Positions 1,006 to 16,071 of a stretch of 64,000 nt of DNA are shown here, piece by piece. The DNA comes from an uncultured Gammaproteobacteria bacterium (lineage in GTDB: Bacteria; Patescibacteriota; Microgenomatia; Levybacterales; GWA1-39-11). The number at the start of each line of letters is the position of its first letter. The stretch's first letter is position 1. The stretch covers positions 274,630 to 338,629 of the forward strand of contig CAYPEN010000002.1 of the NCBI GenBank assembly GCA_964409875.1, read 5' to 3'. The notes beneath the pieces are model-generated. The model was not told where the DNA came from, ran no database searches, and saw only the letters and a program-made list of their open reading frames with translations. A program made the translations under genes and the position numbers.

Positions 1006-1151
1006 TTTGACAACTGAATTTTAGGAAATCACGGTGACCCGCCTAGACTCGACGTCTAGTCGAGGCTGGAATTCCGTGGCTGTGCCGCAACTGTATAGTC
1101 AGAAAACGAATACTCCCGAGCAGGAAAAAAAATTACAGACATAATTTTTGT

Positions 1152-1180
1152 AAAACCTCCTTCTCGCAGGAGGTTTTTTT
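1152..1180 (+). terminator. Rho-independent terminator hairpin (aaaacctcct-tctcgc-aggaggtttt followed by a T-run), 12 nt upstream of the next start codon
   Basis: A perfect 10-bp stem with a 6-nt loop is followed by ttttttt. It could terminate nrdJ and/or act as the expression platform of a leader upstream of the adenosyltransferase gene. Confidence 0.7.
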
Positions 1181-1191
1181 GTAGGAAAAAT

Positions 1192-1746
1192 ATGAGCATA
1201 TACACAAGAAAAGGCGATAAAGGGAGCACTTCTTTAGGAAGCGGTGTACGCGTGTCAAAGGACGACGTACGGGTCGAGGCCTATGGAACTGTGGATGAGT
1301 TGAATGCAGTTCTTGGCGTCGCAGGTTCGGAGCTCGTGCACATAAAAGAGGGATACTCCAAGTATTTATTGGAAATTATCCATCAGGTGCAAGACGATCT
1401 GTTTTGCATCGGCTCTTATTTGTCAAACCCGGCAAACGCAAATCTTGTCGAATTGTTGCCGCAACGGACAACTGTTTTTGAGAGATACATCGATGAAATG
1501 ACAGAAAAAATGCCCGAGCTTTCCAACTTTATACTTCCGGGAGGCGGAAAGGCAGGAGCATTCTTGCAGCTTGCAAGAACCGTAAGCAGGCGTGCTGAAA
1601 GAAGACTTGTTTCGCTTTTGAAAAAAGCAAAGATAAATGAGGGAGTGGTAATGTATATCAACCGGCTTTCCGACCTGCTTTTTACCATGAGCAGGTTCTC
1701 AAACCACAACGAAAAACAAAGCGAGACGATTTGGAAACGAAGATAG
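1192..1746 (+). CDS. pduO: ATP:cob(I)alamin adenosyltransferase, PduO type
   Basis: N-terminal MSIYTRKGDKGSTSLGSG...EAYGTVDELNAVLG matches the PduO/MMAB-family signature (YTRTGDxGxTSL, GxxDELN). Its position next to the AdoCbl-dependent RNR fits. Confidence 0.85.
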   Translation: MSIYTRKGDKGSTSLGSGVRVSKDDVRVEAYGTVDELNAVLGVAGSELVHIKEGYSKYLLEIIHQVQDDLFCIGSYLSNPANANLVELLPQRTTVFERYIDEMTEKMPELSNFILPGGGKAGAFLQLARTVSRRAERRLVSLLKKAKINEGVVMYINRLSDLLFTMSRFSNHNEKQSETIWKRR

Positions 1747-1749
1747 CCA

Positions 1750-1852
1750 TGGGTGAAGTGGGGTGGAAGTCCCTCTCTGTGCCGCAACTGTGAATCCTGA
1801 GCTCGTCGAAGGATAAGTCAGAACCCCGGAAGTCTTTTCGAGCAAAAAGCAT
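1750..1852 (+). ncRNA. Candidate cobalamin riboswitch-like leader upstream of ORF 1853..2926
   Basis: Contains GGTGGAAGTCC (consensus GGUGnAAnUCC), GCCGCAACTGTG (consensus CCGCaACUGUa) and AAGTCAGAACCCCGG (B12-box-like rAGYCMGgAgaCCkGCc) in the canonical order. A related compact version (GGAATTCC...GCCGCAACTGTATAGTCAGAAAAC) lies at 1065-1108. The call rests on remembered consensus and is not computed. Confidence 0.35.
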
Positions 1853-2947: not shown

Positions 2948-3655
2948 ATGTTCGATTTTTTTGCCCAACTTTTGTACCCAAAAAGATGTGTGAAATGCAA
3001 AAAAGCGGGGGACTATATTTGCGACACGTGTTTTACGGGAATTGCTTTTTTGGAGAACCAGTTGTGTGGAGTTTGTCAGAAAGGTTCAATTGACGGGCTA
3101 ACCCATCCAAAATGCCGGAGTAAATTTGGTATCGATGGGATAATGTCCGCAATTTCTTATAAGGGAATTGTCAAAAGATTATTGTATCAATTTAAGTATC
3201 CTCCGTATCTTTCCGATTTGAAGGGGATTTTGGGAAGGCTTTTCTATGAGGCGATAGTGCAACAAGAGGTATTCGTAACGTACATATCAGAGAAATATAC
3301 GCTTATTATCCCTGTGCCGCTACATCCTGCACGCTTACGAAAACGGGGGTATAATCAGGCAGAACTTTTAGGAAGAGAGCTGTCAATGCGTTTAAAAATT
3401 CAGCTCGTTGATAATGTTTTAATAAGAACAAAGCAGACAAAACCTCAATTTGAGCTCAAAAAAGAGGAGAGGATTAAAAACATTTTGGGTGCTTTTCAAA
3501 TTTCCACGAAGTTTACAACAAAAATAAAAGGGAAAAATATAGTCCTTGTTGATGACATTACAACAACCGGCGCGACACTCCGGGAGTGTGCAAAAATATT
3601 GAAAAAGAGTGGTGCGGAAAAAGTATTGGGTGTTACCCTAGCACACGAAGCTTAG
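2948..3655 (+). CDS. comF: ComF-family protein (double zinc ribbon plus phosphoribosyltransferase domain)
   Basis: N-terminal CVKCKK...CDTCF and CGVCQ zinc-ribbon motifs. The C-terminal PRTase motif is VLVDDITTTGATLRE. Confidence 0.75.
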   Translation: MFDFFAQLLYPKRCVKCKKAGDYICDTCFTGIAFLENQLCGVCQKGSIDGLTHPKCRSKFGIDGIMSAISYKGIVKRLLYQFKYPPYLSDLKGILGRLFYEAIVQQEVFVTYISEKYTLIIPVPLHPARLRKRGYNQAELLGRELSMRLKIQLVDNVLIRTKQTKPQFELKKEERIKNILGAFQISTKFTTKIKGKNIVLVDDITTTGATLRECAKILKKSGAEKVLGVTLAHEA

Positions 3656-3715: not shown

Positions 3716-4104
3716 GGGGATGAATTGAATCGACAGGAACTGTACTTTAAAAACTGCAAGCCGGCAATGACTCAAAGCCGTAAAAAAGGGTCAAAAATAC
3801 ATGCTAACAATACTGTTAGCGGTATAAAGCGGTTCTTCGCGGATCGCATTCCGGATGTAAATCCGGGATTAGGTTACGCGGCATTCGCCTAATACCTGTT
3901 TGCTTCCATTCCGCCTCAAGCTCGGGGAAGCAGGCATCAACCAGCTTGAAAACTTAACGGGGCTGACCGAACCGTTTCGCAAAAGGTCTTAGCTGTTTCA
4001 TTCTGCGTTTGGGAGGTCAGAAACGGCAAAATATATCTCAAACTACGCTTGTAGATGTTTTTGAATATGGTTTTTGGACGCCGGTTCGTTACCGGCCATC
4101 TCCA
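3716..4104 (+). ncRNA. ssrA: tmRNA (SsrA)
   Basis: The 5' end GGGGATGAATTGAATCGACAGG parallels E. coli GGGGCUGAUUCUGGAUUCGACGGG. The 3' end GGACGCCGGTTCGTTACCGGC-CATCTCC-A parallels GGACGCGGGUUCAACUCCCGC-CAGCUCC-A, with the acceptor strand complementary to the 5' GGGGATG including a G3-U pair. An internal tag reading frame ends ...PGLGYAAFA followed by TAA at 3890-3892. Confidence 0.8.
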
Positions 4105-5605
4105 CACCAGTGTTTTTTGAAGTTGCTAAATTACCGATTAGCTTGACAGGATAGGCCAAACTTGCGGTTCCAAAGCCATTCTTGTAGTCATATTCAACTT
4201 TTCCGTTAAAATAAGCGTATAGAACAGCTTTCTTATCGTTCACATTTTCACTTTGCCACATATCAATAGGATTTTTTAGCAGTGAAAATAGTTTTTCCGT
4301 AGCGGTTCCAAATCTTTCGTCATTGTAGGGGTTGGATATTAACTCCATATCAATAGACCTAATCTCTTGAGAGTATTTTTCAATTTCGTTTTCATAAACC
4401 TTAATTAAATCTTCACTTGAGGCTTTAGTTATTCGTTCAAGTAGACTTGAAACTTTTGCTTCTAATTCAACTTTTCTATTTAAGTAAAGTTGTCTAATCT
4501 CCTCGTAGCTATTTTTCTTTAAGTTCCATGCTTCTGTTAACACTAATTTTGCAACGTCTAAAATCGTGTTATCTAACCTAACCTTGTATAATAATGCTTC
4601 GAATTGGTCCTCCATGCTTTTCCTTCCTATAACCTTATACTTGTACTTGCAATACTTATTGATACAGAAATAATTGGGATATCTACGACCATGACGACCA
4701 GTGTTCCAAGATGCTGTAAGAGGCTTATTGCACGAAACACAGATAATATGAGTTCGTAATGGAAAATCACTTGAATAGTCGTGTCTTGTCCATTTTTTCC
4801 CTTTTGACCTTATTCTTTGTTGGACTTTTTCGTAGGTTTCAATTGTTATAATGCCTTCATGATGACCTTTTCGCCTCTCTACACTCCATTTAGGGTACTC
4901 CACGTAGCCTGTATATAGTATTTGCCTAAGTATTCGCTGGGTACCGCTTAATGAAAGTTTTTTAGTTATACCATGCTCTTTATATTTGTTGAGAATAAAT
5001 CTCTGAACATCTTCCTGAGTGTTCAGAATACCCACGGCGTAATTTTCTAATGCAGTTTTAATGATAGAAGCGTATGGTTCGACGGGTTTTAATAGCTTCC
5101 CGTGGATAGGGTCTTTAACAGCTGAGAGGCCCAGGGGTGGAAAAAAGGCCCAGTAGCCCTTCTCTAATCGTGCTTTTTGCTTCTGAATAACCTGTCTTCT
5201 ATTGGATTTACGTTGATACTGATTGCTAACGGCTAACATTAGCTCAGCCATTTCGCTCTCATCACTTTCTTCAAAGTTGAAGTTCAAACATTCTAGTCTT
5301 ACCCCTCTAGAGGAAAACTCCGCCCTAAGTTGGATATGAACTTTAACGTCTCTTGCAAACCGTGATAAATCATCAAATATTATTACGTATTCTTCTAATG
5401 TATGGTTATCGATATATTGGATAAGTTGCTTCATGGCAGGCCTTTCAAATAAACCACCGCTTATACCGTCATCAGGAAATACTGCTTCTACGGGATAACC
5501 TTTTTGGACTGCATGAACCCTGCATCTTTGCTCTTGGGAGCTCAAACCATTACCTTCCTTAACCTGCCTCTGACTAGAAACCCTACAATAGATAAGTGCC
5601 TTCAT
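4043..5605 (-). CDS. Large serine recombinase (serine integrase type)
   Basis: N-terminal resolvase catalytic domain (LIYCRVSSQRQ with the Ser nucleophile), a recombinase domain, a Cys-rich zinc ribbon (ICVSCNKPL...CINKYCKYK) and a C-terminal coiled coil. The last roughly 20 codons overlap the tmRNA T-arm and acceptor. Confidence 0.9.
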   Translation of the reverse strand: MKALIYCRVSSQRQVKEGNGLSSQEQRCRVHAVQKGYPVEAVFPDDGISGGLFERPAMKQLIQYIDNHTLEEYVIIFDDLSRFARDVKVHIQLRAEFSSRGVRLECLNFNFEESDESEMAELMLAVSNQYQRKSNRRQVIQKQKARLEKGYWAFFPPLGLSAVKDPIHGKLLKPVEPYASIIKTALENYAVGILNTQEDVQRFILNKYKEHGITKKLSLSGTQRILRQILYTGYVEYPKWSVERRKGHHEGIITIETYEKVQQRIRSKGKKWTRHDYSSDFPLRTHIICVSCNKPLTASWNTGRHGRRYPNYFCINKYCKYKYKVIGRKSMEDQFEALLYKVRLDNTILDVAKLVLTEAWNLKKNSYEEIRQLYLNRKVELEAKVSSLLERITKASSEDLIKVYENEIEKYSQEIRSIDMELISNPYNDERFGTATEKLFSLLKNPIDMWQSENVNDKKAVLYAYFNGKVEYDYKNGFGTASLAYPVKLIGNLATSKNTGVEMAGNEPASKNHIQKHLQA

Positions 5606-5773
5606 GTATTTTGTTTATGTACCTCTGAGTCAATTATATTATTACAAAGCAACCGAAGAGAAAAAAGAAGGTTTTCAATGTCAGTATCAGGCATTTTTTC
5701 TGCCCTGGTACAGAGCGCTTTTCTGACTTCTTGTACAGTGAGTCGTTTTGCGTTACTTTTTTCAGCCACCATA
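5602..5773 (-). CDS. Small HTH protein, candidate excisionase/recombination directionality factor (56 aa, absent from the ORF track)
   Basis: Read on the minus strand as MVAEKSNAKRLTVQEVRKALCTRAEKMPDTDIENLLFSLRLLCNNIIDSEVHKQNT. Its stop TGA overlaps the recombinase ATG (ATGA coupling). The segment LTVQEVRKAL looks like the first HTH helix of Xis/MerR-like proteins. Confidence 0.4.
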
Positions 5774-6038
5774 AACTAGGTACTGAAGTAACGCCGCGTC
5801 AAGTTTGGCTTATTCCTTGTGGAATCCGATACTTACTTACAGGAGTATATTAATATATCTAACCTCAAATATCAAGCCTGTGATTGTTAAAACGTGCCGT
5901 TTTTGAATAAACTTTAATCTTACTTTTTGTAAGAATTGTTAATATTTCTTGAGGCTAATGATTATGTTTATAGTGAGATGTGGTTTAATCTTCAGTATGA
6001 TTACCTCAAAGTAGGAACCCTGGCTACCCCCAAATCGT

Positions 6039-7070
6039 TTACGCAAGGGTCAATAGAAGTTGAATCAATACGAGGAAACAAGCGATAAAAACGACTAGCC
6101 ATAAATCAGCCTGAAAGACTTCTTTTCTTTTAATGCTATTAACAAAACTCCAAATACTTGAGGCCATAAGAATTAGACCCAATAGCACTAAAACCACAAA
6201 TAATATAATGCTCCACATGTGGGAAAATACAACTTTTTTTACACTGAAATCTTGCTGAGAGTTTTCCTCTACCTTTTTTGAGGCTGCAATTAATTGAATT
6301 GCTTGCTGATTTGAATTGTTTAATAACGATGAAAGTCTACTATCGTTTGGTCGCTCTTTTGCAGCTTCTTTATACCATTCGGTATCAGTTGACGTTTTGC
6401 CTGCATAAATTCTAGCCCGAATCATCTGGTCATTTAATTGGTTTCTGTATTCTGGAAAGGCGTTCATAAAAGCGTTATTTCTTAGCGAGAGTAGAATAGC
6501 TTCTGATTGCCGAGATATATTCAATTGTTTTTGATGCATGTCTATTACATCTTGGAATAACCTATTGTTTTTAATGATTGAAGTGTCAATTCTATCCTTT
6601 AAGGCATCAATTGTTTTCTCGTTACTTCCTAACTTCTCAAAATTCTTAAGAAATAATTTCGATAAGTCTGACTGAGATAAGATACTTTGGTTAATAACAA
6701 AGACAATAACAACATAAAGCACACTTACGAATAGTGTCAATAATTTAAGTAACTTTAAGATAAAAGTGCTTTCTTTTTTAGCTGGTTGTTCTATTAATTG
6801 CTGTTCCAAATACACGATGTACACTATGAAGGAAATTAGAGGTACTATAATTGCAAAGATTTGCCATAAACGTGAGTGCTTTGATGGGTGTTTTTTTAGA
6901 GAATAAGTAATTGCAAACCAACTTAAACCCCCCGCTAATATCGAAGCTAAAATTTCATTTTTAATAATACAAACAGACGCTATTATTAAAATTAGCCATA
7001 TAATACGGCCGCTTCTCTTATTTATAAATTGTTCAAATAACTTCATATACGTTAACGAGATATTTCTCAA
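6039..7070 (-). CDS. Hypothetical polytopic membrane protein (island cargo)
   Basis: About 4 N-terminal and 2 C-terminal hydrophobic helices flank a coiled-coil-rich soluble middle domain. No known motif was recognised. Confidence 0.5.
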   Translation of the reverse strand: MRNISLTYMKLFEQFINKRSGRIIWLILIIASVCIIKNEILASILAGGLSWFAITYSLKKHPSKHSRLWQIFAIIVPLISFIVYIVYLEQQLIEQPAKKESTFILKLLKLLTLFVSVLYVVIVFVINQSILSQSDLSKLFLKNFEKLGSNEKTIDALKDRIDTSIIKNNRLFQDVIDMHQKQLNISRQSEAILLSLRNNAFMNAFPEYRNQLNDQMIRARIYAGKTSTDTEWYKEAAKERPNDSRLSSLLNNSNQQAIQLIAASKKVEENSQQDFSVKKVVFSHMWSIILFVVLVLLGLILMASSIWSFVNSIKRKEVFQADLWLVVFIACFLVLIQLLLTLA

Positions 7071-7245
7071 TAATACTTCCAGCCTAGATCAAACGCAAGG
7101 CTATGAGTCCAAATAAATGCTCTTTTAGGCTAGTGGATTGAGCACAATTGGCTTTCAATAATTACCGTATATTACCACCCATAAATACATGTACGAACAC
7201 CAAATTTTTTCAGGTATAATCTAGCAGTCAGAATATAGAAATTCT

Positions 7246-8076
7246 ATGCATAAAACAACACAAAAACGAGTTGATGAGTTGCTTAAAAAGATAAATAGCC
7301 AGCCACCTTCACCAGTCATTACAGGAATATACAAATATCAAGAGGAACACATTACATGGCTAACAAAAAATTACTGGGGATTCACAAAATATTTTGAGGA
7401 AAGTTATGATTTTTTTGTTAATTTAGTAAGTTCGGTTAACTTTATCAATAAAGACAAGTGGAAATGGAATTTGAAATTACCTTATATTTATCTTGGAAAT
7501 TCAACTTATCCATTGTTTAAGTCGTTCACCTTATTGTCCGAAGGATTTTATGATGAGTCGCTTGCACTTTCAAGAGTATCTTATGAGCTCTTAATTAAAT
7601 CGCTGTTTTGCATTCTACATCCAGATGATGCATTTGCAACTTACCAAAAGCCAGAAAAAGGGAAACTAGTATATAACTTAACAAATTTTGTTAAGGATGA
7701 TCTGAAAGTCGATTGGGAATTTCTTTATCGTTTATCATCAGCATCATCTCATGGAAAGCTATATTTTACTAAAATTATAAGTGATAGTAGGGAAAAAGGT
7801 AAACATCAAAACATAGGGTTACAACTAAGGCTTGATGAAAAATCAGCTCAAATTAATATGAACTATCTAACTTTCTTGATTTGGACTCATATTTATTTAT
7901 TCACTGTAATATTTGATGACATTGTTCCTACTAGAAAAATAAATAGTGCTGTTAAAAAAGAGGCGAATGACTACATTAAAATACTAGGGAATATTGTTAA
8001 AGGAACTCCAAATAGTTTTTCTGGAGTCGGAATCGATTTTGAAAGGATTATCAAGAAAGTTAAAGTACAAAAATGA
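7246..8076 (+). CDS. Hypothetical protein (island cargo)
   Basis: 276-aa ORF in AT-rich DNA, divergent from the membrane protein gene. No recognisable motif. Confidence 0.45.
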   Translation: MHKTTQKRVDELLKKINSQPPSPVITGIYKYQEEHITWLTKNYWGFTKYFEESYDFFVNLVSSVNFINKDKWKWNLKLPYIYLGNSTYPLFKSFTLLSEGFYDESLALSRVSYELLIKSLFCILHPDDAFATYQKPEKGKLVYNLTNFVKDDLKVDWEFLYRLSSASSHGKLYFTKIISDSREKGKHQNIGLQLRLDEKSAQINMNYLTFLIWTHIYLFTVIFDDIVPTRKINSAVKKEANDYIKILGNIVKGTPNSFSGVGIDFERIIKKVKVQK

Positions 8077-8158
8077 ACCGTTGCATCAAATCCGTTCCAA
8101 TAGTATCTTTCTATAAAGTCTTGATAAAAGTGAACGCGATGTTAAAAAGTCTTTTTAA

Positions 8159-8578
8159 TTATGCTGGAATTGAAAATGAGATGGAATCTTTTTTTATCAA
8201 CTGAGACAATAATTCTGCTTTTAACACTTCCGATAATAAAATAGCATCTTCTTTGTGCCTATTCTTCAAATAAATTGTATTATCCTTATTGTTAAACAGA
8301 TCTTTGAATCTTTTAAACTTAACATCGTGCGTCGTTAAATTGGTCTTATAATACTCGATGAATAACCCTCCCAGGTTTGAATCTTTATCTATATACATTG
8401 AGAATTCGTTGTTTAATGAAAATAAAGAAAATTCAGGGCTAATTTGTTTGGGCGAAAGACTGAGAGAATCCAAGTCAGCATCATAAGCAAAGTGCCAATT
8501 TTTATTTGTAGCAATAGTTTCTATTTCTGCTATCTGTGATTCTAATTTTTTTGTATTTACTTTTATGGACGTTTGCAT
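8159..8578 (-). CDS. Putative DUF2283-like antitoxin partner
   Basis: HFAYDADLDSLSLS and MYIDKDSNLGGLFIEYY resemble the DUF2283 pattern YDxEaDaLyI...lDlDedGrlvGIEi. It sits immediately downstream of, and overlapping, the DUF4258-like gene. Confidence 0.35.
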   Translation of the reverse strand: MQTSIKVNTKKLESQIAEIETIATNKNWHFAYDADLDSLSLSPKQISPEFSLFSLNNEFSMYIDKDSNLGGLFIEYYKTNLTTHDVKFKRFKDLFNNKDNTIYLKNRHKEDAILLSEVLKAELLSQLIKKDSISFSIPA

Positions 8579-8913
8579 GGTTCTTTAAAATACTTCTCTT
8601 CCTTAATGTTTGTAGGTCTAAAACCCGTGATTATGATATATTTGTCTTTCGTTTTTTGTACTACTACTTTAGTGTATCTCTTTATTCCTTCAATCTCAAA
8701 TTCGTAATAATAGTAACAAAATCTTTGACGGTTATCGTAGGCAGGATAAATGCAGAGCGGGTTGATTATAGCACTTTTCATCCGATCAAGAAAATTCGTT
8801 ATCAATAGTTCGGGATGAATACCCTTGTGTTTATCGTAGTTTTCTTTCGTAAATATATATCTTTTTCCATCGGAATCCTTAAAATCTAAGATAAGTTCAT
8901 CATCATTAATCAT
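8563..8913 (-). CDS. Putative DUF4258-like (RelE-fold) toxin
   Basis: The C-terminal YIIITGFRP resembles the DUF4258 signature (vITvYrP). It overlaps the downstream gene by 16 nt, giving a bicistronic pair. Confidence 0.4.
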   Translation of the reverse strand: MINDDELILDFKDSDGKRYIFTKENYDKHKGIHPELLITNFLDRMKSAIINPLCIYPAYDNRQRFCYYYYEFEIEGIKRYTKVVVQKTKDKYIIITGFRPTNIKEEKYFKEPCKRP

Positions 8914-9050
8914 TTTCCGAGTATATTCCCTCCATTTATTAGTGTCAAATTATATAATGTTTCAAACTCTCTCATGTGTATACTTCTCCTCATTTTTGCA
9001 CGTTATTTCAGGCGTAAATATTCTGATAGCTTCTGGTGATATAATCGTGA

Positions 9051-9683
9051 ATGTGGTTCCAACTTTCTGTAGAGATGTCCACACGTCTTAGATGTAACGG
9101 TAATTTACATTACCTATCTCCAAACAATATGCGTGGTGAAAGAGAGAAGACTCCAGATGTTGATACGGTCCTTGTAGAGGATACCGACCTGTTTTTTAAC
9201 CTTCTAACATTAGCTGATGATTTAGGAGTCGGCTTTAATCACCTAGCTCAAAACTTTATAAATGCAGCCTTATTAGTTAGAGAAATACATGCAGCAGAAA
9301 AGGAGTCTGTTGTGAAACGGACAAGTGACGGACTAACTGAAATTGACCCTTACGAATTATTGGTTCAAGCGATAACAAAACCAATTATTGATAACAAAAT
9401 AAAATATCGCAAAGATTACCAATTGGGGCCATTAACTTTCAGTCCGCCTATATATTTGCATAAGGGTGCAAAGATAATATCGCAAGCCAACTCTTTGGGG
9501 TCACAAAACCATTTGCAAGAATTAAGCTTAGAATTGGGCGTAGGGGTCGATTCCGTAATAGGAGGAATGTTGCATTGGGGATATGAACAGGCAAGAGAAG
9601 AGTTGGGTGGTGTATCAAGCTTAATGATAAAAAGAGATGAGACAAATAATATTATTCTTACCTTAATTCCAATTACTAAATAA
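9051..9683 (+). CDS. Hypothetical protein (island cargo; the true start may be the internal Met at about 9129)
   Basis: ORF-track entry with no recognisable motif. It ends 2 nt before the smpB stop (convergent). Confidence 0.4.
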   Translation: MWFQLSVEMSTRLRCNGNLHYLSPNNMRGEREKTPDVDTVLVEDTDLFFNLLTLADDLGVGFNHLAQNFINAALLVREIHAAEKESVVKRTSDGLTEIDPYELLVQAITKPIIDNKIKYRKDYQLGPLTFSPPIYLHKGAKIISQANSLGSQNHLQELSLELGVGVDSVIGGMLHWGYEQAREELGGVSSLMIKRDETNNIILTLIPITK

Positions 9684-9685
9684 TT

Positions 9686-10126
9686 CTAAATGAGATTTTT
9701 GAGCTCGCGTTCGCGATCCCGCTCAATTGCCTGCTGTTTTACATCTTTTCGCCTTTCGTAGTCTTTTTTTCCTTTTGCAAGTGCAACTTCCAATTTAAAA
9801 CGCCCATGTTTTTCATAAAGGGAGAGTGGGGCAAGGGTATATTTTCCGGTTTCAAGCTTGTTTTTGAGGCTCAGAAGCTCCTTTTTATGAAGCAAAAGGC
9901 GGCGGGTTCTGTCTTCCTGGTAATTTTCTACACGCGAGAATTTATAAGGGAAAATTTTGGCATTGATAATATATGCCTGCCTGGACATTATTTTCACATA
10001 TGAGCCCGAAAGGTCCGCATGGCCAAGACGTATGGCTTTTACCTCAGACCCCAAAAGTTCGATTCCTGCCTCGAATTTTTCTTCAATTTTGAATTTTTGC
10101 GGCGCGGTTTTATTGAAAATTTTCAT
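9686..10126 (-). CDS. smpB: SsrA-binding protein SmpB
   Basis: FEAGIELLGSEVKAIRLG...RRLLLHKKEL...GKYTLAPLSLY...KLEVALAKGKK match conserved SmpB blocks. Confidence 0.9.
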   Translation of the reverse strand: MKIFNKTAPQKFKIEEKFEAGIELLGSEVKAIRLGHADLSGSYVKIMSRQAYIINAKIFPYKFSRVENYQEDRTRRLLLHKKELLSLKNKLETGKYTLAPLSLYEKHGRFKLEVALAKGKKDYERRKDVKQQAIERDRERELKNLI

Positions 10127-15725: not shown

Positions 15726-15838
15726 AATGGAAAAATACGTTCAAAAACAATAACTCAAGTGATATAATGAGACCTCAAGACTTTAGATTTAGTCATGTGT
15801 TCGGCATGTAAGGGTAACCTTGCATACCCTCATAAATT

Positions 15839-15900
15839 TGGGCATGTAGCTCAGGGAATGCTCTTTTTGCTCAAGCAAAAAGTAGAGCGCATTCTTACGT
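15839..15900 (+). pseudogene. Degenerate 5'-half copy of tRNA-Ile with a roughly 27-nt hairpin insertion in the D-loop
   Basis: gggcatgtagctcaggg + aatgctctttttgctcaagcaaaaag + tagagcgcattctta matches the first 37 nt of the downstream tRNA but has no T-arm or acceptor 3' strand. Confidence 0.6.
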
Positions 15901-15951
15901 TAAAAAAAGACTTGAAAACCGCATACAGAACTTAAATTAGTTTATGTTATT

Positions 15952-16023
15952 CGGGCATGTAGCTCAGGGGTAGAGCGCCATTCTTATAAAATGGATGTCC
16001 TTGGTTCGATTCCAAGCATGCCC
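15952..16023 (+). tRNA. tRNA-Ile, anticodon TAT (UAU)
   Basis: A manual cloverleaf fold gives acceptor gggcatg/catgccc, D-stem gctc/gagc, anticodon stem ccatt/aatgg with loop cttataa, and T-stem cttgg/ccaag with loop ttcgatt. No CCA is encoded. Confidence 0.75.
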
Positions 16024-16071
16024 ACAAAAGCCCCACAGCCAACTTCATGATTGTCTTTTTTTAACGAGCTA

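Follow-up and report, generated by a model that had tools for sequence, protein, structure and literature searches.

Two probable class II cobalamin riboswitches in the nrdJ–pduO–X357 operon of an uncultured Levybacteria-type bacterium

Described cobalamin riboswitches and the nrdJ–pduO–X357 locus

Cobalamin (vitamin B12) riboswitches in known regulons repress B12-independent isozymes such as MetE, besides genes for uptake and synthesis of the vitamin. Tandem riboswitches controlling one operon also exist, and MMACHC/CblC and cobalamin reductases are corrinoid-processing or trafficking proteins that work with PduO-type adenosyltransferases. These systems are compared here with a locus in a 64-kb stretch of DNA (the window) from an uncultured bacterium of the Candidate Phyla Radiation (CPR; Levybacteria type). 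In this locus, the successive genes nrdJ, pduO and X357 encode a probable class II adenosylcobalamin (AdoCbl)-dependent ribonucleotide reductase (RNR), a PduO-type ATP:cob(I)alamin adenosyltransferase and a 357-residue protein without a known family. The leaders upstream of pduO (site A) and X357 (site B) are very probably two class II cobalamin riboswitches, both of which most likely turn the cofactor-supply genes down (OFF switches) at high coenzyme B12, with the upstream nrdJ left ungated. A search of the literature on Patescibacteria, CPR and Microgenomates found nothing relevant on cobalamin riboswitches or on an nrdJ–pduO module.

All cobalamin riboswitches have a four-way junction built from P3 to P6 and a kissing loop between L5 and L13, which couples ligand binding to regulation (PMC7367189). 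Class II members have neither the P2 module nor the large P6 extension, and their structural prototype is the Cbl-IIa riboswitch env8 (PDB 4FRN/4FRG; PMC7367189). Like class II members (RF01689, env8), the window leaders combine a four-way core carrying GGUGnAAnUCC (P4/L4), GCCGCAACUGU (P5/P6) and AGUCAGAA with an L5–L13 kissing loop. Neither leader has P2 or P7–P11, and no sequence between P1 and P3 could form P2. The absence of a P2 module and of a large P6 extension (P6 ends in a 6-nt loop in site A and in a single 28-nt hairpin in site B) therefore assigns both leaders to class II. Site B also resembles this class in having its ribosome-binding region in or next to P13, so that the kissing loop itself would be the switch. 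Unlike the prototype, neither leader has a bulged J1/3 internal loop, the closing helix being near-continuous in site A and a 4-bp GGGU/ACCC helix in site B; moreover, site A carries a 32-nt hairpin in L4, both switches are intercistronic and both have sub-threshold Rfam scores.

With class I (RF00174/RF01482; Escherichia coli btuB, T. tengcongensis 4GMA), the window leaders share the clan, the binding core and the kissing-loop logic. As in many Gram-positive class I members, a terminator competes with an antiterminator at site A, and RF01482 is the best Rfam match of site B. However, both leaders lack the P2 loop-stem-loop and P7–P11, which create the adenosyl pocket of class I (PMC7367189). 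The arrangement is also reminiscent of tandem riboswitches, in that two aptamers of the same class lie in series on one transcript and X357 would be doubly checked. Unlike in tandem riboswitches, the two platforms differ (transcriptional, then translational), a whole gene lies between them and each would gate a different cistron.

Identification of the two leaders

A sequence-only reading of the window had claimed two motifs shared by both leaders and a third in the second leader, all of which were located. The 15-mer CTGTGCCGCAACTGT occurs on the + strand at 1080–1094 and 1777–1791 and nowhere else in the 64 kb, even with two mismatches (0.04 matches expected by chance; two copies in 0 of 100 shuffles), and GGTGGAAGTCC lies at 1763–1773. 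The motif AGTCAGAA is found at 1097–1104 and 1816–1823, with five further copies in the window that make it weak evidence alone. The extents of the leaders were refined to 1014–1183 (a little more than the 1031–1185 of the sequence-only reading) and 1743–1852, and their earlier description as 5' untranslated regions was dropped, both switches being intercistronic. In a permissive Rfam search of positions 840–1900, the two best matches belong to the cobalamin clan, both on the + strand. Site A matches AdoCbl-II (RF01689) at 1016–1113 with 25.0 bits (gathering threshold 36.5; E 0.0033 in this 1-kb search) and a 36-nt insertion, and site B matches AdoCbl (RF01482) at 1735–1855 with 30.2 bits (gathering threshold 50; E 0.0023 in the same 1-kb search), leaving P1/P2 and the 3' half of the model unmatched. 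These sub-threshold scores are suggestive and insufficient, and comparative evidence was therefore used.

The comparison covered 26 genome loci, three close relatives and 80 metagenome loci. In 14 related genome loci, orthologous leaders exceed the curated RF01689 or RF01482 thresholds, always on the gene strand. Among them are site A leaders, in the nrdJ–pduO gap, in loci L002, L003, L011, L013, L014, L016 and L022–L026, and site B leaders, in the pduO–X357 gap, in L001 and L012 (both by RF01689 gathering); the site B leader of L021 reaches 47.2 bits on RF01482. A covariance model (R1), built on a MAFFT alignment of the site A leaders of 14 relatives with the window sequence excluded, matches the 64-kb window at 1014–1130 (49.8 bits, E 1.2e-10) and 1743–1852 (41.2 bits, E 2e-8), the next-best window match having an E-value of 6.9. 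Across 98 loci, R1 gives 94 matches, all on the + strand. It aligns both window leaders end to end, and all nucleotides that are invariant in the relatives' alignment are present in both. Because R1 recovers the window leaders, they belong to the same RNA family as the leaders of relatives that Rfam accepts. The sequence comparison thus supports the identification of both leaders as cobalamin riboswitches, and these RNAs add new, divergent members to a well-known class. The likeness that the sequence-only reading had suggested for both is upheld by the Rfam scores of relatives, by the significant matches of a lineage-specific model, by covariation that includes the kissing loop, and by the confinement of the 15-mer to the two leaders within the window.

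Both leaders have the conserved four-way-junction core (P3/P1, P4, P5 and P6). The site A aptamer (1014–1113, + strand), delineated by RF01689, R1 and covariation in relatives, comprises P1 (1016–1021 with 1108–1113, plus G1024–C1107), P4 (1030–1034 with 1074–1078), P5 (1081–1082 with 1088–1089), L5 UGCCG (1083–1087) and P6 (1091–1093 with 1100–1102). The site B aptamer (1743–1833, + strand; RF01482, R1) starts at the pduO stop codon (TAG, 1744–1746). It comprises the closing helix (GGGU 1751–1754 with ACCC 1823–1826), P4 (about 1760–1763 with 1771–1774, L4 being UGGAAGU), P5 (1778–1779 with 1785–1786), L5 UGCCG (1780–1784) and P6 (1788–1790 with 1819–1821), which bears its hairpin extension at 1791–1818. 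Every aptamer is followed by a hairpin, P13, whose nearly invariant loop CGAGCA is complementary to L5 UGCCG with an A bulged. In site A, P13 (UCC-CGAGCA-GGA, 1114–1125, + strand; L13 1117–1122) would kiss L5 through U1083–A1122, G1084–C1121, C1085–G1120, C1086–G1118 and G1087–C1117, with A1119 bulged and a duplex energy of −4.3 kcal/mol. The P13 region of site B (1834–1852, + strand) consists of CUUUU-CGAGCA-AAAAG at 1834–1849, followed by CAU and the X357 start codon at 1853; its L13 (1839–1844) is complementary to L5, with a duplex energy of −4.1 kcal/mol.

Covariation supports this structure. In an unfitted MAFFT alignment, 85.7% of cells pair, compared with 35–41% when the partners are slid by one to three columns, and double changes affect four of five pairs in P4, two of two in P5, one of three in P6 and four of four in P13. 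Among 79 distinct sequences, 91.5% of cells pair (28–43% when slid) with covariation in every helix, in an alignment that was fitted to the model and is hence biased toward the structure. The L5–L13 pairs are 98% intact across these 79 sequences, with compensatory changes at two of the five pairs: AGCCG/CGAGCU (UA to AU) in L069 and L094, and UACCG/CGAGUA (GC to AU) in L013. Minimum-energy folding of the whole leaders, which the sequence-only reading had proposed as a check, did not recover the aptamer, and site B folds worse than shuffles (z = +1.26); single-sequence folding is uninformative for this multi-junction RNA. By eye, a small hairpin of the form UCCGCC-loop-GGCGAGA recurs in L009, L013, L018, L021, L022 and L051, in P6 extensions and terminator loops, and may represent a k-turn-like or protein-binding module.

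Switching mechanisms and operon logic

At site A, a terminator scan identifies an intrinsic terminator (1152–1180, + strand) with a stem of 1156–1161 and 1168–1173, extendable by A–U pairs to 1152/1177, followed by U7. Its U-run ends at 1180, 11 nt upstream of the pduO ATG at 1192 (12 nt in the sequence-only reading). The segment CGAGCAGGA (1117–1125), formed by the loop and 3' arm of P13, pairs at eight of nine positions with UCCUUCUCG (1158–1166), formed by the 5' arm and loop of the terminator, yielding an antiterminator. In the nascent transcript 1107–1167, the antiterminator is the unconstrained minimum-energy fold (−11.0 kcal/mol), and the full platform has −18.6 kcal/mol with the antiterminator versus −14.6 kcal/mol for P13 plus terminator. 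The default state of site A is therefore read-through, and the attenuator proposed earlier for the first leader takes the form of a terminator that competes with an antiterminator made from P13. In relatives, a terminator likewise follows P13, its U-run abutting the start codon, its 3' arm often being the Shine-Dalgarno sequence and its 5' arm being complementary to P13. For 45 distinct loci, pairing of P13 with its own terminator arm has a mean energy of −11.8 kcal/mol, compared with −9.2 kcal/mol for swapped arms (0 of 2000 permutations) and −4.5 kcal/mol for shuffled P13.

Since P13 provides the 5' strand of the antiterminator, its stabilization favours the terminator and hence the OFF state. 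Without ligand, CGAGCAGGA would pair with UCCUUCUCG and the antiterminator would let RNA polymerase enter pduO; with ligand, the L5–L13 kissing loop would lock P13, the terminator would form and transcription would end 11 nt before the pduO ATG. Site A thus appears to be a terminator-type OFF switch, the layout and the mechanism known for this riboswitch class being the basis for the ligand step.

Site B has no terminator and is probably designed to switch translation OFF. Its P13 ends 3 nt before the X357 ATG, with the 3' arm located at the Shine-Dalgarno position, and a spacing of 2–3 nt between P13 and AUG recurs in at least eight loci (L027/L028, L029, L031, L051, L063, L064 and L084). L063 has a perfect Shine-Dalgarno sequence as this 3' arm (CAGGAG-UUU-AUG). 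The ligand-bound aptamer would stabilize P13 of site B and occlude the initiation region of X357. This is the least secure step of the proposed mechanism, because the window has no clear Shine-Dalgarno sequence at this position. Both the translational, rather than terminator, design of the second leader and the 32-nt insertion in site A had been missed by the sequence-only reading.

The 5' strand of the site B closing helix comes immediately after the pduO stop codon UAG (1744–1754), and in L027 (3120–3130) the pduO stop likewise runs straight into the site B helix (UAGGGUGAA). A ribosome terminating on pduO would cover and unfold this helix, such that translation of pduO could antagonize folding of the aptamer (translational coupling).

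The gene order nrdJ–pduO–X357 is kept in all loci with a long enough flank, nrdJ being the first gene of the array. In the window, the 3' part of nrdJ (2–862, + strand; the last 286 residues) matches Pfam Ribonuc_red_lgC and TSCPD and has the C-terminal end ...CPQC..CAKCYACGHAEC, directly before the stop codon. The top NCBIfam matches of this fragment are vitamin B12-dependent RNR families, below their whole-protein cut-offs. TIGR02504 NrdJ_Z (cut-off 400) is matched with 596 bits by the full-length NrdJ of L005, the closest relative, which has 82% identity to this fragment where they overlap. The gene pduO (1192–1746, + strand) matches PF01923 with 186 bits (cut-off 24) and TIGR00636 with 187 bits (cut-off 108). 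These matches support the B12-dependent RNR and PduO-type adenosyltransferase of the B12 module that had been read from the sequence. X357 follows downstream of site B (1853–2926, + strand).

In many relatives, site A starts 1–30 nt past the nrdJ stop codon, and no + strand promoter is predicted. As there is neither room for a promoter nor a predicted one, both switches are intercistronic and transcribed from the upstream genes. Expression of X357 would then have to pass two checkpoints, namely read-through at site A and subsequently site B, and the operon would gate the cofactor-supply genes pduO and X357 and leave the B12-using reductase ungated.

The gene located 3' of 96 riboswitch matches is pduO in 46 cases, X357 in 40 and a gene for a DUF4430 transcobalamin-like protein in 10. 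Among the 74 loci that extend 1 kb or more upstream of X357, 71 carry an upstream riboswitch on the same strand, and two of the three exceptions reveal an aptamer core when the speed filters are switched off, raising the count to 73 of 74. The homologues of the 357-residue zinc-ribbon protein are thus riboswitch-associated elsewhere, as the sequence-only reading had suggested looking for, and X357 is, as far as sequence can tell, a member of the B12 regulon and a new B12-regulated gene. X357 and PduO would both be needed by the cell at times of AdoCbl scarcity.

DUF4430 is the C-terminal domain of transcobalamin (PMC4350170). In some relatives, a small DUF4430 protein with an N-terminal membrane anchor is encoded between site A and pduO (L002 2071–2769, L007 2011–2676, L013 2333–2749, L026 2024–2686, L069 1195–1572 and L089 1211–1633); the operon in the window contains no such gene. 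This membrane-anchored protein is likely a cell-surface B12 binder under riboswitch control.

The 32-nt hairpin CCCGCCUAGACUCGACGUCUAGUCGAGGCUGG of site A (1038–1069, + strand) splits L4 between UGA and AAUU, whereas L4 of site B is a normal 7-nt loop. In the Rfam and R1 alignments alike, it appears as 36 nt inserted with respect to the model. Such an insertion is unusual, because L4 is described as a highly conserved T-loop that directs global folding (PMC6158498). The hairpin folds as a nested element (−19.7 kcal/mol, z = −2.65) that does not disturb P4. Site B of L029 holds a near-identical insertion at this L4 position (about 3411–3441) and site A of L005 a shorter one, insertions of any kind in L4 being found in three of about 100 leaders. 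That the near-identical copy lies in a paralogous aptamer speaks for a module that is tolerated or functional. The hairpin contains the overlapping palindromes CUAGAC/GUCUAG and CUCGAC/GUCGAG. A high-copy mobile repeat was considered and rejected, since the window holds the insertion once and a near-identical copy occurs in just one further fetched locus; a target-specific mobile mini-insertion and a functional module are both conceivable.

X357, alternative readings and neighbouring features

X357 has at least 200 homologues, none of them annotated, and the few that carry an organism name come from Levybacteria/CPR. The family forms 555 clusters at 50% identity with one common architecture, which includes a C-terminal CxxC...CxxC motif (zinc ribbon). 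Residues E46, R47, D92, R95, E96, E99, S125, Y134, F138, D140, R158, N258 and D261 are invariant, as are C295 in a TGCG motif and the zinc-ribbon cysteines C329, C332 and C347, and the last residue, C357, is nearly so. No match to X357 was obtained in Pfam or NCBIfam, and PADLOC and PHROGs gave matches only at E > 0.01. The AlphaFold2 model of this presumably soluble protein is confident, with a predicted local distance difference test score (pLDDT) of 87.7, and a Foldseek search of the PDB with this protein returned nothing at E ≤ 0.001 (best E 0.04, template modelling score < 0.2). A PAS/GAF/TagF-like fold was considered on the basis of weak partial overlaps in that search, and no fold was assigned. 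A PDB profile resemblance to the L37Ae/eL43 zinc ribbon (E ≥ 0.015) was set aside as having no functional meaning; it accounts for two stray JGI names among the homologues. A relationship of the Cys-rich C-terminus to the zinc-finger tail of NrdJ was rejected as well, since BLASTP finds no alignment between them. Longer homologues have no informative fused domains, their extensions being of low complexity. X357 always directly follows pduO, often translationally adjacent or overlapping, and none was seen outside nrdJ–pduO loci in about 100 loci.

Several points weigh against the interpretation of both leaders as class II OFF switches acting on cofactor supply. At curated thresholds, Rfam detects in the window only a transfer-messenger RNA (tmRNA) and three tRNAs and no cobalamin riboswitch; the Rfam check proposed by the sequence-only reading found nothing at default settings, both leaders scoring below the gathering thresholds, and gave clan matches on both only in the permissive search. 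P1 of site A is weak, with one mismatch, and this copy could be impaired by the 32-nt hairpin in its conserved L4 T-loop. At site B, P13 alone is unstable (dG about 0), and anti-Shine-Dalgarno pairing at X357 amounts to only −2.2 kcal/mol, with comF likewise lacking a clear Shine-Dalgarno sequence. Kinship among the sequences inflates the shuffle-based statistics. The identity of the ligand is not readable from sequence, class II members ranging from AdoCbl- to MeCbl (methylcobalamin)-selective. As for X357, the fold search gave only the weak PAS/GAF-like partial matches.

These points leave room for other readings to different degrees. That the resemblance arose by chance, that the leaders belong to another RNA class or that they are ON switches is hardly credible: the sub-threshold Rfam scores would fit the former two and one activating corrinoid riboswitch is reported (PMC10327014), but R1 matches the leaders at E-values of 1e-10 and 2e-8 with no other match in the window, the helices and the kissing loop covary, and stabilization of P13, as the 5' strand of the antiterminator, favours the terminator. 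It is also quite improbable that site A has decayed, its L4 hairpin preventing L4–L6 docking and B12 binding and leaving constitutive read-through or termination, with site B alone regulating. The interruption of a conserved T-loop, the rarity of such insertions, the lower Rfam score of this leader and its weak P1 would agree with decay. However, all other invariant nucleotides, the L5/L13 complementarity, P13, the antiterminator and the terminator are intact, the insertion is self-contained and leaves UGA...AAUU and P4 in place, and the same-position insertions in L029 site B and L005 speak for a module that is tolerated or useful and against random damage. The ligand of the two riboswitches is most likely AdoCbl, which is favoured by the nearly continuous closing helix, by the short P6 hairpin of site B and by the sense that repression of an adenosyltransferase would make as end-product feedback. 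Sensing of a non-adenosyl cobalamin (hydroxo- or methylcobalamin, as in Cbl-IIa) instead is unlikely. It would accord with the best Rfam match of site A, and of most relatives, being RF01689, with the class II architecture lacking P2 and a large P6, with the binding of hydroxo- or methylcobalamin by env8, a Cbl-IIa riboswitch of solved structure from a marine metagenome, and with the plain-loop P6 of site A, a Cbl-IIa trait (PMC7367189). Yet there would be little regulatory point in repressing an adenosyltransferase at high levels of its substrate, and the absence of a bulged J1/3 loop, the near-continuous closing helix and the P6 hairpin of site B are Cbl-IIb (AdoCbl) traits; selectivity in class II forms a continuum from AdoCbl to MeCbl that is not predicted by secondary structure (PMC7367189, PMC6158498).

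The strict linkage of X357 to pduO and nrdJ and its shared regulation suggest, from context only, that X357 most likely acts in corrinoid handling for NrdJ, be it binding, reduction, ligand removal or delivery. In functional terms this would resemble MMACHC/CblC-type helpers, as X357 shares its location and regulation with a PduO-type adenosyltransferase and a B12-dependent enzyme; unlike those helpers, it shows no detected sequence or fold similarity to them. A more far-reaching proposal can be made tentatively, with less than even confidence: X357 may be an unrecognised corrinoid-handling protein (a reductase, a beta-ligand-removing enzyme or a chaperone feeding PduO and the class II RNR) with a fold unlike solved structures, which together with the DUF4430 surface binder would complete a minimal, riboswitch-gated and CPR-specific B12 salvage pathway, the L4 hairpin being a functional new peripheral module. 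It is somewhat unlikely that X357 is unrelated to B12 chemistry, as an operon passenger or as a B12-independent back-up for deoxynucleoside triphosphate supply (deoxynucleoside or DNA salvage) that is turned on when the reductase is idle. Such a back-up would parallel the riboswitch-repressed B12-independent alternatives exemplified by MetE, X357 has no recognisable corrinoid-binding domain, and comF, encoding a DNA-uptake-associated phosphoribosyltransferase-like protein, is the next gene in several loci. Against this stand the invariable position of X357 directly after pduO, its absence outside nrdJ–pduO in about 100 loci, and its regulation shared with PduO and the DUF4430 B12 binders.

Further features surround the operon. 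In the window, the gene after X357 is an open reading frame (ORF) for a ComF-like phosphoribosyltransferase (2948–3655), followed by the tmRNA gene. Between the nrdJ stop codon and site A (889–1005, + strand) lie three extra copies of the last eight nrdJ codons plus stop. The close relatives L005 (3094–3123), L029 (2701–2730) and L030 (3165–3194) have one copy each, and the other 73 loci holding the nrdJ 3' end have none. The copies encode exactly the C-terminal redox tail of their own gene (YACGHAEC, YSCGHAEC or YSCGHSEC), and the six differ from it at 9, 5, 3, 7, 6 and 10 of 24 nt, adding up to 40 changes with zero amino-acid changes. The differences include switches between TCY and AGY serine codons and different stop codons. 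Relative to nrdJ, the copies lie in varying frames (−1, +1, 0), and a start codon is missing from one of them. As the spacer between nrdJ and site A can be aligned across four genomes, the first copy seems to be of ancestral origin and to have been maintained or selected. Translated mini-peptides, scars of surrogate-3'-end elements and rescue of frameshifted or read-through ribosomes were considered as explanations, none of them satisfactory, and these recoded tails may be more novel than the riboswitches. The closest relative lacking them, L027, has a 63-residue ORF without a Pfam match between nrdJ and site A (2251–2442).

The tmRNA gene (3716–4107, 118.8 bits) overlaps at its 3' end a minus-strand ORF for a 520-residue large serine recombinase (4043–5605; Resolvase and Recombinase domains), in a position where relatives have smpB. 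Over 4–10 kb, the fraction of guanine plus cytosine falls from about 0.45 to 0.32–0.37 and the ORFs have no Pfam match. Positions 3716–10000 probably hold an element integrated at the tmRNA gene; a second copy of the tmRNA 3' end, which would mark its far edge, was looked for and not found. A 21-nt direct repeat, 95% identical (15836–15856 and 15949–15969), copies the 5' end of a tRNA gene (15953–16024) 113 nt upstream, and may be a remnant of integration or duplication.

CPR/Patescibacteria have tiny genomes and depend for cofactors and nucleotides on other organisms. Since the B12-dependent reductase is the only route to deoxynucleotides visible here, B12 acquisition is essential for them. 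The two leaders exemplify intercistronic riboswitches that would gate cofactor supply and leave the B12-using enzyme ungated, adding a two-checkpoint layout, transcriptional and then translational, and a natural insertion in a highly conserved T-loop; they also illustrate that Rfam thresholds overlook divergent CPR members of a well-known riboswitch class. These riboswitches are ordinary in kind, but they label the X357 family as part of the B12 economy of CPR. The most useful result is the firm placement of X357 in the B12 regulon, which turns a hypothetical protein into a testable candidate for a missing step between uptake and adenosylation.

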